A program made the translations under genes and the position numbers. A DNA stretch of 64,000 bases, taken from positions 3,063 to 67,062 of the forward strand of contig CAZWFS010000001.1 in the NCBI GenBank assembly GCA_964633325.1, in the 5' to 3' direction. This DNA is from an uncultured Candidatus Saccharibacteria bacterium (GTDB lineage Bacteria > Patescibacteriota > Saccharimonadia > Saccharimonadales > CAZWFS01). Below, one piece after another: positions 6,062 through 55,000 of this stretch (within the stretch, counting starts at the first letter, position 1; each line of letters begins with the position of its first letter). The notes beneath the pieces are model-generated. The model saw only the letters and a program-made list of their open reading frames with translations. It was not told the DNA's origin and did not search any database.

Positions 6062-6202
6062 ACTCTGCTCCTAAACCACCCTTTAAACATAATCATAGTA
6101 CATAACTCCCCATTTTGCAACCCCTTTATCCACCAGGGACTGAAAGCCGTTAACCTTAGGTTGTTAGGCATGCTGGTTGTTTTGCTTTTCAAAAATTCAA
6201 GT

Positions 6203-6239
6203 CAAAAAGAAGTTCGGATTCACTCCGAACTTCTTTTTT
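6203..6239. terminator. intrinsic terminator hairpin downstream of groEL; U-runs on both strands
   Basis: gaagttcgga-ttcac-tccgaacttc stem-loop followed by TTTTTT, preceded by an A-run on the other strand. Confidence 0.55.
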
Positions 6240-6253
6240 CCTATTGGGAGGTA

Positions 6254-6317
6254 AGCAGCCAGAGAAAATGTTTCATTTTCCCTGCGCGATGAGAGGAGGA
6301 ATCACCTCCTCTCATGG
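6254..6317. repeat. conserved twin-hairpin intergenic element, copy 1; copy 2 is at about 34289..34354
   Basis: About 64 nt reading AGCAGCCAGAGAAAATG-loop-CATTTTCCCTGCGC-ATGAGAGGAGG-loop-CCTCCTCTCAT. It recurs nearly identically at 34289-34354 with the differences confined to loops. Confidence 0.5.
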
Positions 6318-6333
6318 GCAAGCGCAGCGTGGC

Positions 6334-7989
6334 CTACATTCCCATCATGCCGCCAGGCATTCCACCGCCGCCGCCCGGGGCTGGGGCTTCCTTTTCGGGT
6401 ACTTCGGCTACCAGGGCGCCCATGGTCATGGCCGTGCCGGCAATCGACGTAGCATTCTGCAAAGTTTCTTTGACAACCCTGACCGGGTCAACAATTCCGT
6501 TAGCTTTGAGGTCAACTAATTTGCTTGGGTCATTGACGTTAACACCCTGTCCGGCCTTTCCGGCCTTAACCTGGGGTAGCCATTCGTCGGCGTTGATGCC
6601 AGCGTTATCCAACAGGATGCGGAAGGGCTGTTCCAGCGCTTTTTTAAGCAGTAATCGGCCGGCTGTCACGGAATCGTCATCGCTGGCAGTCGTGGTGATA
6701 TTGCTTGTCAGGTTGATAAGCGTAACTCCACCGCCAGGTACGATGCCTTCTTCCAGGGCGGCTTTGACGGCCGCTACGGCGTCGTCAACCCGGAATTTCT
6801 TTTCCTCAATCTCGGTCTCTGTTGCGCCACCCACTTTAATGACAGCTACTTTGCCGGAAAGGGCTGCGCGCCGCTTTTCCAGATTCTCTCGGTCATACTC
6901 GCTACTGGCAGCTGCCACTTGGGCATTGATCTGCTTAATACGGGCGTCTACTTCAGTAACCGAACCATCACCTTCGATTATGGTGGTCTCGTCTTTAGTG
7001 ACAATTACCTTGCGGGCCGTACCAACCATATCGAGTTCAGCGTTTTCAAACGTGAAGCCTTGGTCCTCGGTAATTACCGTGGCTCCAGTCAGGATAGCAA
7101 TGTCGGCTAGGATATCCTTGCGGCGGTCCCCAAAGGCAGGCGCTTTTATAGCCACTGTATTGAATACGCCCTTCAGCTTGTTAAGCACCAAGGTGCCAAG
7201 CGCTTCCCCTTCCACGTCTTCTGCGATGATGACCAAATCTTTCTTACCGGCCTGAGCCATTTTCTCCAGCAGCGGCAAAAATTCTTGTATGGAACTGATC
7301 TTCTTATCGGTTATCACAATGGAGGGCTTGTCGTAAACGACTTCCATGCGGGTAGGATCGGTAACCATGTAGGGGCTAACAAAACCGCGGTCAAAGGTAA
7401 AGCCTTCTACTACTTCGCTCTCCAACAGTAAGCCTTGGCCCTCTTCTACCGTCACGACGCCGTCTTTGCCGACTTTGTCGATGACGTCGGCAATCAACGC
7501 GCCAATGGCGCTGTCTCCGGCAGAGATGGTGGCCACTTCAGCCACGCGGTTCTTCTTGCCCTGGATGTCCTCGGCTAGACCGCTAAGCTTGGTGATGACA
7601 TCATGGGCGGCAGCCTCCAGTCCTTTACGCAGGAGCATGGGGTTGTGTCCAGCCGCAATCAGCTTGTTGGCCTCGTTCAGGATGTGATAGGTTAGCACCG
7701 TAACTGTGGTGGTACCGTCTCCTGCGACATCGTTCATCTTGCTAGCTGCTTGTTTGATAAGTTCAGCGCCCACTTTATAGCCTAGAGTCTCGTCGTCGAC
7801 ATCGGCCAGCTCCACACCTTTAGCTACGGTCACGCCGTCATGGGTAACTGTCGGGTTACCGTATGACTTGCTTATAACAACGTTACGGCCTTTGGGACCC
7901 ATAGTCGTCTTTACCGCGTCATACAATACCTTGGCTCCCGCCAGGACACGTCGCCGCGCATCGTCATCGTAAAAAACTTTCTTTGCCAT
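6334..7989 (-). CDS. groEL: chaperonin GroEL (Hsp60)
   Basis: Full-length GroEL sequence ([14 protein letters not shown]..., GGM-rich C-terminal tail). AGGAGG RBS. Confidence 0.95.
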
Positions 7990-32067: not shown

Positions 32068-32512
32068 GCAAGACAAGGCAACAGAAAAGTTAATGGAAAA
32101 TATATGTACCGCAGTAGCCGAGTATCACAGCAAGGCAATGTCGGACCACGTAAAGACAGCAATGCAGCAACTAGCCAAAGCTGGATATGCGCTAAGGCGC
32201 CCACCTTTTGGTTACTCAACCACAGAAACTAGCGGATTGTTCCGCATAAACCGTATAGGCATGGCTATGCGTGTAGCAATGCAGGAAGCAGCCAACGGTG
32301 AGGTTTCTAGCGAGGAGTTTAAGCTACGGCTTTCTATCCTCTTTAGCGGTGAATCACTGGATATACGTAGTAAGGCTAGTCTAAAACGAATAGTTTCAAA
32401 TCCGTACTATATCGGCTTAATACGTTGTGGCAATGAGCTGTATAAGGGCTTGCACGAGCCACTGATTACGGCAGAGGAGCAGCAGAAGCTAATAGAGATA
32501 TTGGAAGCATAG
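32060..32512 (+). CDS. recombinase-domain-only protein (serine recombinase fragment lacking the catalytic resolvase domain and zinc ribbon)
   Basis: RRPPFGY and NPYYIGLIRCGNELYKG match the recombinase-domain motifs seen in the three full-length serine recombinases in this window (NPFYVG, NPYYCG, NRYYMG). Confidence 0.5.
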   Translation: MNKQDKATEKLMENICTAVAEYHSKAMSDHVKTAMQQLAKAGYALRRPPFGYSTTETSGLFRINRIGMAMRVAMQEAANGEVSSEEFKLRLSILFSGESLDIRSKASLKRIVSNPYYIGLIRCGNELYKGLHEPLITAEEQQKLIEILEA

Positions 32513-32590
32513 CCACTTGGGGGAGTTTATCTCCCCCTTGCTGGTAGCAATTACCAGAGGTACATCATAAAATATAAGTAGGAAACAATA

Positions 32591-34155: not shown

Positions 34156-34288
34156 TCGAAAATATGATATAGAACAGAGGTGAGTTTACCATATTGTCTC
34201 AGGAAAGCCTATGGTTGCTAGAGATTTGGGTGAAATGGCAAAAAGTTCGAATTCACTTCGCGCTTTTTGGTTCCGTTTGTGGGAGGAG

Positions 34289-34354
34289 AGCAGCCAGAGA
34301 AAATGTATTCCATTTTCCCTGCGCTATGAGAGGAGGAGTCACCTCCTCTCATGG
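34289..34354. repeat. conserved twin-hairpin intergenic element, copy 2
   Basis: Near-identical to 6254-6317. It is preceded by a degenerate copy of the same TTCAC-loop terminator hairpin and lies immediately 3' of minus-strand gene 34357..34953. Confidence 0.5.
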
Positions 34355-34356
34355 TT

Positions 34357-34953
34357 TTAGAAGCGGACGCGGCGCATTAGGCGTTCCAGGGGATCCTGGC
34401 TACGCTGTTCTACTGGTAGGGCGGCGGAAAGCACGCGCACTATTTTATCCTCGTCCGCTGGATCGTAATAGATACTTATAGATGTCATAAACCTCTTCAG
34501 TGGCAATAACAGGATGGATCTTATGACGCCCTCTTCGAGTATGGCAAAAGATTTAAGCTCGCCGTAGCCGTAAAATTTTGGGCCAATTTGTACACCCGAC
34601 GAATTAACGGAGTACTCCAGTACCCGAGGCGTACGGGCAGCCATAACGCCGAAGACAGCGCCGACCACCACGATCATCCCAGCCGAAATCCGGTCGCCTT
34701 GGGTAAAGAAATATACAATTATAGCGGCAACAGCCGTGGCCAGACCAAGCATTACGAACCAACCAGTGGACTTGTGATGCGCTACATACTCTGAAGCAGT
34801 CCATGATACAGGCTCTATAGGCTGGATAGAATTAGCCGGCGCTTCCGGTGCCGTCTGGCCGGACGCATCCTCGGACTTGAATTGCCATCCGGGCGCTTCT
34901 TGGTCGGTTTTAGTCTCTTCCGTACCTGCGTATCCTGGCTGATCATCGTCCAT
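34357..34953 (-). CDS. hypothetical membrane protein
   Basis: Acidic N-terminus followed by two TM helices; no motif. Confidence 0.4.
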   Translation of the reverse strand: MDDDQPGYAGTEETKTDQEAPGWQFKSEDASGQTAPEAPANSIQPIEPVSWTASEYVAHHKSTGWFVMLGLATAVAAIIVYFFTQGDRISAGMIVVVGAVFGVMAARTPRVLEYSVNSSGVQIGPKFYGYGELKSFAILEEGVIRSILLLPLKRFMTSISIYYDPADEDKIVRVLSAALPVEQRSQDPLERLMRRVRF

Positions 34954-41360: not shown

Positions 41361-41816
41361 ATGAGTAAAGATAAAAGCGGAAACTGGTTCGGCAGGCACA
41401 AAATATTAACAGTAGTTGGTGTCCTTATTGTCATAGGCATCATAGCTAGTGCGGCTGGTGGGAATAAATCCAATACACAAACGGTGCCTAACAGTAATAG
41501 CAATACAACAACTACGGCACCGACCCCAGCTCAGCAAACACAACCGCAAAAAGAAAAGCTAACAATTAAGAACTCGACTTACTCGGAAACGAGCGGTCTC
41601 AAGCAGGTAGTCGGTGAAGTAACAAATAATGACTCCAGCCAGCACTCGGCTACCCTAAAGGCAACCTTCTACGACGCAAATGGCAAAATCTTAGGAACTG
41701 CCAGCGGCGCGGTCAACGAAGTAGCTCCAGGTGAAACCAAAACCTTCACGCTGATCACCGCCGACAATGTCAGCGGCTACAAGGACATGAAAGTTCAGGT
41801 CGACACACTGCTATAG
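41361..41816 (+). CDS. small secreted or membrane-anchored protein
   Basis: Signal-anchor (ILTVVGVLIVIGIIASAAG), a Thr/Asn-rich linker and a beta-rich C-terminus. AGGAGGGG RBS. Confidence 0.4.
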   Translation: MSKDKSGNWFGRHKILTVVGVLIVIGIIASAAGGNKSNTQTVPNSNSNTTTTAPTPAQQTQPQKEKLTIKNSTYSETSGLKQVVGEVTNNDSSQHSATLKATFYDANGKILGTASGAVNEVAPGETKTFTLITADNVSGYKDMKVQVDTLL

Positions 41817-52013: not shown

Positions 52014-55000
52014 ATGGGAAGTGTTACTGCACACCAGGATCAGAATCGTTTACTAGAAGTGGAGCCTACTAAGCTCCACAGTACAAAAGTTACTCTGCCT
52101 CTACGTCTAATCGACAGCGTAAAAGTTGGCAAGAATCGAGCCAATCAAATTTACCAAGACGAAGAATTAGTTGACGTTGATGTTTATGATGAGGGGGATA
52201 AGCTCTTAAAGTTAAAATCAGAAAAAGAAGAGTTTATTCTTAAGCTACCGGGAGCCAGAGCAACCATCACTAATAAAAATGTGTTAAGAATTGCAAACTA
52301 CACAGATGCAAAATCTATAAATCAAGATAGCAAATTAACTTGGGAGGACTTTCAGGGCTCCGAGGCACCAAACAGTACTAATGGAGTGAAAGAATCTTGG
52401 CTTCATTCCTTTAATTTTAAGGAAGAATATCCAGCAAAGAATATACCTGGTCTTAGAAAACCCCAAGCGGGCGCAATACACTCTGTAGCCGCTCATTGGT
52501 CTGTGAAAAACGACTGCGCCACAATTGTAATGCCTACTGGTATAGGGAAAACTGAAACGATGCTTTCGGTTATGGTTCATCAACAATGTGAAAAGATTCT
52601 TGTTCTTGTACCCACCAGTGCGCTTAGGAAACAAATATATAACAAATTCTTAACGCTAGGTAAGTTGAAGAAACTTGGGGTTGTTGAGCAGAAAGCACTG
52701 AGCCCCCGTGTATTAATGATTGAGCACACCATTGAAAATGTGGCTGAAGCAAAAGAAGTATTAAAAAACGCCAACGTTATTGTAGCTACTGTAAGTGTCC
52801 TAAATCGCTCAAGTGATACCGTCAAACAAGTAATATCTGAGGGATGCTCTCATTTGTTTATAGATGAAGCGCACCATGTACCTGCCAATAGTTGGAGTGC
52901 CATAAAAGACCTTTTTGAGAACAAATATATCTTGCAATTTACTGCTACACCGTTTAGGCGAGACTCAAAAGTAATTGAGGGGGATATCATATACAACTAC
53001 CCCCTAGGAATGGCGCAGAATGACGGCTACTTTAAGAAGATTAACTTATTGAAGCTTCAGGAGTTTGATGACGCGAAGTCAGACGAAGAAATAGCCAAAG
53101 CGGCAATAGGAGCACTTGAGAATGATCTAAACGGCCCAATAAAACTTGATCATATGATTATGGCTAGGTGTAAGGATAAGGATCGAGCTCGTGATATAAT
53201 CCGACATTACAAAAAACACGGTACAACATACAACCCGGTTCTTATTGATTCTGAATTGACCAGTAAACAATATAGAGAAATCGAGGAGAAGCTAAAGAAC
53301 GGCGAAACTAGGATTATTGTCTGTGTAAATATGCTTGGTGAAGGTTTTGATCTGCCTAATCTCAAAATAGCTGCCCTACATGATGTCCATAAGAGCCTTG
53401 CGATCACCCTCCAATTCATAGGTCGTTTTACAAGAGAAGCTAAGGATGTTGGTGACGCTACCGTTGTAGTGAATGTGAATGATCCCCAAGTTAATAAGGA
53501 CTTGGAGGGTCTATATTCTGAAAACCCAGATTGGAATGAAATCTTAAAGCAAAAAAGTGAATCTACCATAGAGCACGAAATAGAATCCCATGAGTTTATA
53601 AAAGAATTTTCAGGGGAGCTTTCAAAGCACATTTCTCTTTGGAATTTACGCCCATCATTCTCAACGCTAATTTATGAAACTAAGTGTCAAGACTGGAACC
53701 CCAAAAAGTTCGAGGAGGTAATGCCCAAGCGATACAAATACTGGCATGCAATAAACCAAAAAGAGAAAATACTGGTTGTAGTTATTAGCAAAGAAGATGA
53801 GGTAAATTGGGGCCGCTATAAGGACATTCATAATCACAGCTTTGAACTTTGTGTGGTGCATTGGAGCGAAGAGCATAAAGCGTTGTTTATACAATCTAGT
53901 GACTACGATGCAATTAACCCGGCAGGTTTATCAAGAGCTATTTGTGGAGAAGATACCAAAATCAAAAATGGGTCTAATGTATTCAACATATATTCAGGCG
54001 TGGAGCGCATTCTTGCTCGTAATCTCGGCATCTCGACTGTTGGGAATAATATATCCTACACAATGCACTTTGGTAGTGACATTACTCAAGGCCTCTCAAA
54101 ATTAGATAAGTCTTTAGGGGTTCTGAACAACATTTCGGCTTGGGGTTTTGAGGGCGGTGATCGTTTTATGGCAGGCTGCTCGGAAAGAAGTGGCAAAATT
54201 TGGTCTATCGGTGGTGGTCCTATGATGCTTTGGAAAAGTTGGTGTCATAAGGTGGCCGACAAAGTTTTTGATGAAACTATTGAGGCGAATAAGGTAATCG
54301 AAGAATTTCTTCGCCCCGTCCAGCTCGAAAAGAGGCACAAATCCGTACCTCTGTTGATCGAATGGAGTGAAAGGATTCTTAAGGCAAAAGAGGACAATAT
54401 AACTGTCTTGTTCGGTAAAGAAGAGTTTAAAATTTATGACGTAGAAATAGAGATTACTAATTTTTCTGATTCAGGTCCTGTTCACTTCCGAGTATTTAAT
54501 GATACCCATGAAACAAAATACAAAATAGATTACTCAAAAACGGACTGCAAATACTCCATTGTCAGTGGCAACGATATGAGTATTAAAAAGTACAGTGCAC
54601 AGCCTGTTCCGTTTATGGACTACGTTTTGAGAGACCCGGTTGTCGTTATATACGTGGACGGGTCTTTCTCATACAACAATTATCACGTACCTACACCGCC
54701 ACTAAACCAATTTTATGACAAAGAGCGTTTGCAGGTTGTTGATTGGCAAAAGACAAATATACGGGTGGAGTCAATGAAAAAAGAAAGAAAAACCGATAGT
54801 ATTCAACACAAAGTGTGGCAAATGCTTAATGATGAATATGAAGTCGTCTTTAACGATGACGATTCAGGAGAAGCTGCCGATCTAATCGCCATAAGGCAGG
54901 AGTCTACTGACACAATAAAGTTGCACCTAGTTCACTGTAAATTTTCATCAAAGCCAAACACTGGGTCTAGAATAGGAGATTTTTATGCTCTCTGTGGACA

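Follow-up and report, generated by a model that had tools for sequence, protein, structure and literature searches.

Two Copies of a Structured Element Downstream of groEL and a Second Gene

The stretch of DNA analysed here (64,000 nt, referred to below as the window) contains a groEL gene and a 198-aa open reading frame (ORF), both on the minus strand and each followed at its 3′ end by one copy of a structured element. The two copies, at 6245–6317 and 34280–34354, are also on the minus strand and are ~90% identical. A search of the window for repeats matched 6261–6317 to 34298–34354 over 57 nt (88%) and 6245–6271 to 34280–34306 over 27 nt (93%). In transcript order, the features are:

6334–7989, minus strand: groEL, an ORF whose predicted 3′ UTR contains copy 1
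6305–6315, minus strand: copy 1, 5′ (purine) arm of hairpin P1, AUGAGAGGAGG, invariant in 33 type A copies
6300–6304, minus strand: copy 1, P1 loop UGAUU; the consensus UGAYU is nearly invariant in type A
6289–6299, minus strand: copy 1, 3′ (pyrimidine) arm of P1, CCUCCUCUCAU, from sequence, fold and pattern search
6288, minus strand: copy 1, P1–P2 junction base C
6258–6287, minus strand: copy 1, hairpin P2, GC-(bulged G)-CAGGGAAAAUG / AAA / CAUUUUCUCUG-GC, from the fold, with one G.U pair
6245–6257, minus strand: copy 1, tail UGCUUACCUCCCA, the proposed third strand, from sequence and the arm/tail covariation of the family
6203–6239, minus strand: copy 1, P3, an A/U-flanked long hairpin with a GUGAA loop, then UUUUU, from the fold
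34357–34953, minus strand: 198-aa ORF, whose predicted 3′ UTR contains copy 2
34326–34352, minus strand: copy 2, P1, AUGAGAGGAGG / UGACU / CCUCCUCUCAU, from sequence, fold and pattern search
34325, minus strand: copy 2, junction base A
34293–34324, minus strand: copy 2, P2, GC-(G)-CAGGGAAAAUG / GAAUA / CAUUUUCUCUG-GC, from the fold
34280–34292, minus strand: copy 2, tail UGCUCUCCUCCCA, the parallel complement of the purine arm, perfect over 11 layers
34240–34268, minus strand: copy 2, P3, a degenerate hairpin AAAAAGCGCGAAGUGAAUUCGAACUUUUU, from the fold

The order on the minus strand is thus P1 (AUGAGAGGAGG-UGAYU-CCUCCUCUCAU), one junction base, P2, tail, ~12 nt and P3, with a tail consensus of UGCU(C/U)(U/A)CCUCCCA in the window. 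Each copy has a minus-strand stop codon on one side and a GUGAA-loop hairpin on the other. An earlier reading of the DNA, made from the sequence alone, had described a twin-hairpin module occurring twice, each time 3′ of a minus-strand gene, and the repeat and pattern searches recovered both copies at those places. The perfect 11-bp stem that it had listed as the second hairpin (our P1) was likewise recovered, with a 5-nt loop: the pattern ATGAGAGGAGG-N5-CCTCCTCTCAT occurred exactly twice in the window, against 0.00 expected from shuffled sequence. A covariance model of the element matched each copy at ~85.6 bits (E ~1e-20), and with its filters off gave no credible copy in all 64 kb beyond these two. 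Weaker matches at 54278–54357 and 32468–32540 were judged on inspection not to belong to the repeat family.

Several details of the sequence-only reading had to be revised. Its first hairpin (our P2), given as 7 bp, has 11 bp with one G.U pair on the minus strand, because a plus-strand A.C mismatch becomes G.U there. The “about 12 nt containing GGGAGG”, taken as a spacer, is a third conserved part of the element, the tail. The differences between the copies, said to be confined to loops, extend to the tail (TA at 6252–6253, AG at 34287–34288) and the junction base (6288 and 34325). Of the terminator hairpins placed beside both copies, the GUGAA-loop hairpin is present at both, and the version at copy 2 is degenerate, with 15 of 17 bases around the loop matching P3 of copy 1. 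Folding of both copies, also proposed at that stage, gave minus-strand RNA energies of −61.1 kcal/mol (copy 1) and −49.0 kcal/mol (copy 2), far more stable than shuffled sequences (z = −6.5 and −5.8). That reading did not include the tail and its mirror relation to the second hairpin, nor the subtypes, target duplications or taxonomic setting described below.

P3 of copy 1 (6203–6239) looks like a bidirectional intrinsic terminator in the predicted fold. It has a 10-bp core stem followed by UUUUU, and a strict terminator scan makes no call there because the T-run is absorbed into the stem. Neither P1 nor P2 of type A copies is followed by a proximal U-tract. The core of this hairpin, GGAATAAATCC, occurs exactly a second time in the window, at 41461–41471 on the plus strand.

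The GroEL encoded in the window is 77–81% identical to the GroEL of Saccharibacteria MAG loci, which places the window in this lineage, and an identical copy was found only on one 2.1-kb Logan contig. The 198-aa ORF had no Pfam match; weak homologues (39–46% identity) are present at L055 and L111. Copy 2 is followed, 124 nt downstream and on the same strand, by a tRNA-Arg gene. Rfam 15 at the gathering threshold returned only four tRNAs over the whole window, and only chance matches to miRNA and snoRNA models (all ≤22 bits) at E ≤ 10 over 6100–6400; ten related loci yielded rRNA and tRNA only.

A Family of Repeats in Saccharibacteria

The P1 pattern was searched against GTDB at one genome per species, a set of representatives that does not include the window’s own genome. 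The exact pattern was present at 53 loci and the whole module at ~35, almost all of the carriers being Candidatus Saccharibacteria/Saccharimonadales MAGs. The covariance model recovered copies of this kind, which we call type A and to which both window copies belong, at 78–98 bits, as well as unexpected copies with a different P1 at 39–55 bits. Metagenomes scanned for P1 variants with a beginning other than that of type A gave at least 120 loci, of which at least ~105 are true members of the family. The parsed set comprised 158 copies; the true type A count is ~35, since ~4 antisense P1-only artefacts tagged as type A (L005−, L015+, L027− and L042+) sit in that set. We conclude that the window copies very probably belong to a large, Saccharibacteria-wide family of structured repeats. 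No description of the element was found in the literature, and no paper that connects Saccharibacteria to an element of this sort.

In an alignment of 33 type A copies, P1 and the tail are almost invariant, while P2 varies freely yet stays paired. Compensatory double changes were seen in nine of 19 pairs; one P2 pair, for example, is C-G in 20 copies, A-U in nine and U-A in four. Among the non-A copies in the matches listed, 93% of P2 cells were paired, compared to 78% in shuffles, and 14 of 19 pairs had double changes. None of 500 shuffles reached the observed values, and slid controls gave 40–56%. The further copies and the conserved stems that the sequence-only reading had named as tests of a structured element are therefore both present, in many related genomes, with the stems maintained by compensatory changes rather than broken. 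Its alternative of a small peptide was rejected: the 2-nt indel that it noted between the window copies does break a common frame, and P2 varies across the family in both length and sequence, so that there is no shared reading frame.

The P2 pairs also carry information about the folding strand. G.U pairs numbered 114 when the copies were folded in the sense orientation and 26 in antisense, an excess of which one conserved position may supply much. In 113 of 148 copies (p = 3e-11) the sense fold was the more stable of the two, a preference seen in every context subset. This asymmetry favours RNA, to a modest degree, as the strand that folds.

Some further features recur around the copies. Just 3′ of the tail, ahead of the terminator hairpin, type A loci carry the conserved motif RRGCGGAAUAG (window copy 2 reads CAAACGGAACC), and the type A unit may therefore exceed P1, P2 and tail. 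Tandem copies 130–750 nt apart are found at L020 (3668–3740 and 3808–3886, the second degenerate), L169 and L060. A pentaloop of the form RURAA (AUAAA, AUGAA, GUGAA or GUAAA), closed by an A-U pair, forms the apex of P2 in 74 of ~150 copies. The terminator-like hairpins that follow type A copies have this pentaloop too, and it may serve in both places as a protein-binding loop or be especially stable. Another recurrent motif, TTGACTAGTTATTG, is seen near elements in the flanks of L030, L057, L060 and L101, and may be a promoter −35 region or an operator.

The Tail Covaries with the Purine Arm of P1 in Parallel

Across the subtypes, the tail is the parallel, not the antiparallel, complement of the purine arm of P1 (A to U, G to C), and the two covary:

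purine arm GAGAGGAGG, tail CUCUCCUCC
purine arm GAGA-C-AAACC, tail CUCUUUUCCC
purine arm GAGA-C-AAAACC, tail CUCUUUUUCCC
purine arm GAGA-C-AAAC, tail CUCUUUUCC
purine arm GAGA-C-ACCCC, tail CUCUUCCC
purine arm GAGA-A-GGGG, tail CUCUCCCC
purine arm AGGUGGAGG, tail UCCCCCUCC

Outside the invariant GAGA/CUCU, 266 of 319 purine positions in the variable layers (83%) obey the parallel rule, compared to a null of 54% ± 2.6%, and none of 5000 permutations reached the observed value. The tail U-run equals the arm A-run plus one in 104 of the 115 non-A copies listed (rho 0.96), and the C-runs of arm and tail track one another (Fisher p = 1e-6). The mean contiguous parallel match was 7.4–8.7 layers in types B and C, with 8.7 in B. 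Antiparallel pairing of tail and arm was rejected for these types, its best run being 4.0 layers versus 8.7 in parallel; in type A, an antiparallel alternative of 5–8 bp is possible between GGAGGUGA and UCACCUCC. Because A-runs and GGAGG are their own mirror images, the parallel orientation leans on block order, register, C-runs and a few variants. In L150:1829–1902, the two arms and the tail all differ at layer 3, where G-C plus C has become A-U plus U.

A parallel complement, or mirror repeat, has no Watson–Crick explanation, and a triple helix in the major groove is its natural reading. The geometry is compatible with this: the 3′ arm of P1 ends at the foot of the helix, P2 starts and ends there, and a tail leaving P2 at the same place would continue upward in parallel with the purine arm. 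The G conserved in UGCUC faces the U-A pair, and G.T-A is the classical answer to such an inversion in pyrimidine-motif triplexes. Judged from the covariation, the arm and tail would carry the signature of an R-Y-Y triple helix, and a tertiary contact between tail and P1 is rather probable. In copy 1 of the window, nine of the 11 layers fit U.A-U, C+.G-C or G.U-A, and the misfits are layers 5 and 6, the two non-canonical layers CUUACCUCC.

Against a triplex stand these two layers and two properties of type A: it would need six protonated C+.G-C triples, some of them adjacent, and its tails vary between U and A at two layers though P1 is unchanged. In addition, the arm/tail match is 0.97–1.0 in copies that can be transcribed only in antisense, equal to that in the others, so the constraint is not tied to the local sense RNA and may act on a transposition intermediate or on DNA.

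Genomic Context of the Copies

On the P1 side, 23 type A copies border a co-oriented ORF at its 3′ end, and one borders an opposite-strand ORF at its 5′ end; the stop codon typically lies 4–6 nt before P1. Five copies follow groEL (the window, L010, L020, L029 and L037). Others follow class II ribonucleotide reductase (RNR; four genomes), RNase J (three genomes), a G5/DUF348 protein (three genomes), rpoD and nusA. At sites shared across genomes, P1 and tail are identical, and P2 has diverged by compensation but is still paired. Retention of P1 and tail where P2 has been rebuilt argues for selection in place.

Inspection showed that in about two-thirds of type A copies the next feature is an A/U-flanked hairpin with a RURAA loop; under strict criteria the same hairpin was found after 11 of 39. 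In the window, the one after groEL is the single hairpin of that A/U-flanked kind. Type A also occurs at the 3′ end of the rRNA operon, after 5S rRNA, in five to six genomes, where the terminator precedes the element, opposite to the order after ORFs. At L002, L006, L012, L017, L025 and L030, the copy lies ~40 nt past the 5S rRNA gene and its terminator hairpin. Type B was considered as a possible terminator of its own, formed by P2 and the U-rich tail; its proximal U-tract is poor, and the terminator scan makes no call.

The non-A copies have other neighbours. At least 22–26 of them lie 2–17 nt from the 5′ end of an opposite-strand tRNA gene (e.g., L137:3441–3660). The tRNA-linked copies have an orientation bias of ~26 to 2, with a sigma-70-like promoter (TTGACT-17-GATAAT) or another tRNA past the tail; the antisense of the element would therefore be transcribed as pre-tRNA leader. 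Some non-A copies are 10–30 nt from the start codons of opposite-strand genes, and some lie in the 16S–23S spacer or within lineage-specific insertions in 23S genes. Antisense copies within 23S insertions, or in tandem in the stretch from the spacer tRNAs to the 23S 5′ end, were seen at the following places:

L012:2672–2751, antisense 23S-linked copy
L060:1230–1308, antisense 23S-linked copy
L060:3421–3499, antisense 23S-linked copy
L060:3553–3628, antisense 23S-linked copy

Signs of Mobility

Direct target duplications of 21–56 nt flank at least 12 non-A copies, with a variable filler of 4–29 nt separating each duplication from the core:

L112: duplication with 38 of 38 nt identical
L107: 42 of 42 nt
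L083: 41 of 43 nt
L069: 40 of 42 nt

No target duplications were detected around the two window copies. Two 23S genes that are 84% identical each lack the element-containing insertion of the other, and a groEL gene 81% identical to that of the window (L129:6578–6700) has no element downstream, so that presence of the element varies at this orthologous site. The target duplications and the filled and empty sites indicate that the family apparently is, or was, mobile.

A duplicated fragment encoding the first ~15 residues of MsrA (...AIFAAGCFWG) lies upstream of msrA at L091:5050–5400 (minus strand), and also at L112, L070 and L172, in the order fragment, element, Shine–Dalgarno sequence and complete gene. 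The duplicates are identical over 38 nt in L112, and the diverged pairs differ mainly at synonymous sites, which suggests later replacement of alleles by recombination.

Terminal inverted repeats are absent. The left end, AUGAGAGGAGG, mirrors the right end read as its reverse complement, UGGGAGGAGAG, and the element is therefore not a classical MITE. A model in which orientation is set by the replication strand, as for a single-stranded DNA transposon, was rejected, opposite orientations being found inside single loci of ≤15 kb.

Discussion

We propose, with a confidence that is evenly poised, that the element is a mobile-derived 3′-UTR cassette, an RNA triple-helical knot that lies upstream of a terminator and probably guards the 3′ end. 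The two window copies would be transcribed in the 3′ UTRs of groEL and of the 198-aa ORF. P1 would form an 11-bp hairpin with an all-purine 5′ arm, and P2, a variable hairpin, would start and end at its foot. The pyrimidine tail would leave P2 at the foot and return along the major groove of P1, parallel to the purine arm, forming U.A-U, C+.G-C and G.U-A triples in an R-Y-Y “paperclip” of 9–11 layers with P2 as the second loop. Such a knot, ~45 nt upstream of the terminator, could act as a barrier to 3′-to-5′ exonucleases or as a cassette that defines the 3′ ends of housekeeping messages. The function as a stabiliser is the more tentative part of this proposal and somewhat less likely than not. 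The sequence-only reading had offered a 3′-UTR RNA or a REP/MITE-like repeat, and each would hold in part.

In its proposed function, the knot would resemble REP stabilisers as well as the ENE and MALAT1 triple helices (KSHV PAN, MALAT1, MENβ and the ENEs of plant and fungal transposons). These triple helices place a multi-layer major-groove triplex near a 3′ end, with ~10 layers of U.A-U plus C+.G-C and a proposed block to 3′-to-5′ decay. Some ENE-type triple helices ride on mobile elements too (PMC13541005). The architecture is different. In the ENE, a U-rich internal loop clamps an A-rich 3′ tract, which is the Watson–Crick purine strand; here there is no U-rich internal loop, and a purine/pyrimidine hairpin would receive a downstream pyrimidine strand, joined to it through P2. 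In type A the helix would be C-rich, and it would lie ~45 nt upstream of the transcript end, in a bacterial host. There is no sequence homology. Covariation that would preserve the triples is present between the 5′ arm, the 3′ arm and the tail, including layer 3 of L150; the relation is one of analogy, not homology. Riboswitches and group II introns are the only prokaryotic RNAs for which a 2026 review lists triple helices, there amounting to a few triples, and its 3′-end-protecting examples all come from eukaryotic, viral and eukaryotic-transposon RNAs (PMC13541005). Triple-helical pseudoknots (SAM-II, SAM-V, preQ1-II, telomerase RNA and frameshift stimulators), the only class with RNA triplexes established in prokaryotes, likewise place a pyrimidine strand in the major groove. 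They are of the H-type, with 3–5 triples, bind ligands and lie in 5′ UTRs, whereas the element is not a pseudoknot, would have 9–11 layers, is present in many copies and lies at the 3′ end.

We considered the possibility that the fold serves DNA, or a single-stranded intermediate in mobility, as an H-DNA-like structure or a cruciform plus triplex. The element would then be a selfish insertion: its hairpins and mirror repeat would either be required for it to be copied or inserted or would trigger duplication, and the window copies would be passengers in 3′ UTRs. The target duplications, the filler at their junctions and the filled and empty sites fit such an origin, as do the two orientations within single loci and the equally high arm/tail match in copies transcribed in antisense. 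The mirror relation is present on both strands, and the U/A variation of type A tails would suit a purine (GA/GU) motif on the complementary strand. Like H-DNA-forming sequences, the element has a homopyrimidine mirror repeat (the 3′ arm of P1 plus the tail), which is what an intramolecular triplex demands of its sequence; unlike them, it carries its purine arm in cis, as an inverted repeat, and has a covarying hairpin for a spacer, which points to folding of a single strand. P1 and tail of type A are moreover perfect at the groEL, RNR and RNase J sites though GroEL has diverged by ~20%, the bias at ORF ends is 23 to 1 for sense, the G.U pairs favour the sense strand, and the element lacks both terminal inverted repeats and an identified transposase. 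We therefore regard the DNA explanation, the main rival, as unlikely on its own, although it may hold together with the RNA cassette, as for REP and Correia elements.

Correia elements of Neisseria, which are MITEs, resemble the family in being non-coding insertions of ~100 nt with target duplications and subfamilies; they are co-transcribed with their neighbours, to which they can add terminators or processing sites. In the family described here, target-site duplication and polymorphism for presence or absence were found for non-A subtypes only, and the duplications are of variable length (21–56 nt) with filler, rather than 2–10 nt, and the ends are mirrored rather than inverted. The antisense copies within lineage-specific 23S insertions are reminiscent of 23S rRNA intervening sequences, a likeness that covers some non-A copies only, the window copies being in predicted mRNA 3′ UTRs.

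Another account would treat the element as an ordinary REP/BIME-like twin hairpin without tertiary structure, with a tail that is a protein-binding or processing sequence and resembles P1 as a by-product of low-complexity purine/pyrimidine sequence. P1 and P2 alone account for the z-scores of the fold, and the arm and tail are indeed largely of low complexity. REP and BIME elements are likewise short, structured and multi-copy, and are found for the most part directly behind genes. REPs such as that of malE–malF are known to protect the mRNA upstream of them from 3′ exonucleases. A REP is a 20–40 nt imperfect palindrome with a conserved 5′ GTAG-like head, often in inverted pairs, in a genome that has a RAYT gene. 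The element has no GTAG-type head and no paired arrangement, nor was a RAYT transposase noticed; it consists of three parts, the last a mirror-repeat tail, and shows long target duplications and a distribution restricted to Saccharibacteria. The by-product explanation is difficult to reconcile with the absence of any matching value in 5000 permutations, the exact tracking of U- and C-run lengths, the triple change in layer 3 of L150 and the specificity of tails to subtypes, and we consider it improbable.

Type A might alternatively be directed at the ribosome. The arm and loop, GGAGGUGAY, would then be a strong Shine–Dalgarno (SD) sequence held in a hairpin, and the tail, (C)ACCUCC, a mimic of the 16S 3′ end, the pair tethering or releasing terminating ribosomes, or the tail would be the anti-SD seed of an sRNA derived from the 3′ UTR. 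GGAGGUGAU can pair over nine positions with the 16S 3′ end GGAUUACCUCCUUUCU of a type A genome, the UGAYU loop is conserved, P1 begins 4–6 nt past stop codons, and about half of type A have UCACCUCC as the tail. (The 16S 3′ end GGAUUACCUCCUUUCU was read at L012:1100–1135, and has U where most bacteria have C in AUCACCUCC.) Set against this, the SD sequence is buried within an 11-bp stem, and the U/A variation of the tail would alter any target. Mimicry of SD and anti-SD as the defining feature of the family was rejected, since other subtypes have non-SD arms (GAGACAAACC and GAGACACCCC) with matching tails. A ribosome-directed role for type A thus seems to us very improbable.

Finally, an integron recombination site like attC, or else a small protein-coding gene, would agree with the position directly after stop codons, as for attC, and with the ATG that opens P1, but is effectively refuted by the alignments, which show two hairpins and a tail rather than one long imperfect hairpin with R″/L″/L′/R′ boxes (RYYYAAC ... 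GTTRRRY), no R″/R′ core sites (GTTRRRY), imprecise junctions with duplications, and indels and a hypervariable P2 that break the reading frame.

Returning to the RNA cassette, a triple helix of the length proposed is previously undescribed at bacterial mRNA ends, and there is a substantial chance that with this element a long RNA triple helix is seen in bacteria for the first time. The full reading, that of a natural bacterial R-Y-Y RNA triplex of 9–11 layers, borne by a mobile element and exapted as a cassette protecting the 3′ ends of housekeeping mRNAs, is one that we find plausible and on balance slightly doubtful. If true, it would be a prokaryotic functional counterpart of ENE/MALAT1, reached through a different architecture and carried by the ultra-small, host-dependent Saccharibacteria, and its subtypes would be a natural “mutagenesis” from which rules for triple helices could be tested, including G.U-A and C.C-G layers and the tolerance of mismatches. 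The long duplications of variable length, together with ends that carry no inverted repeats, hint that insertion proceeds by a mechanism unlike that of classical MITEs. The family is a useful marker for the annotation of Saccharibacteria genomes and accounts for some of the insertions in their rRNA genes, and the element could show how these genome-reduced bacteria control mRNA decay.
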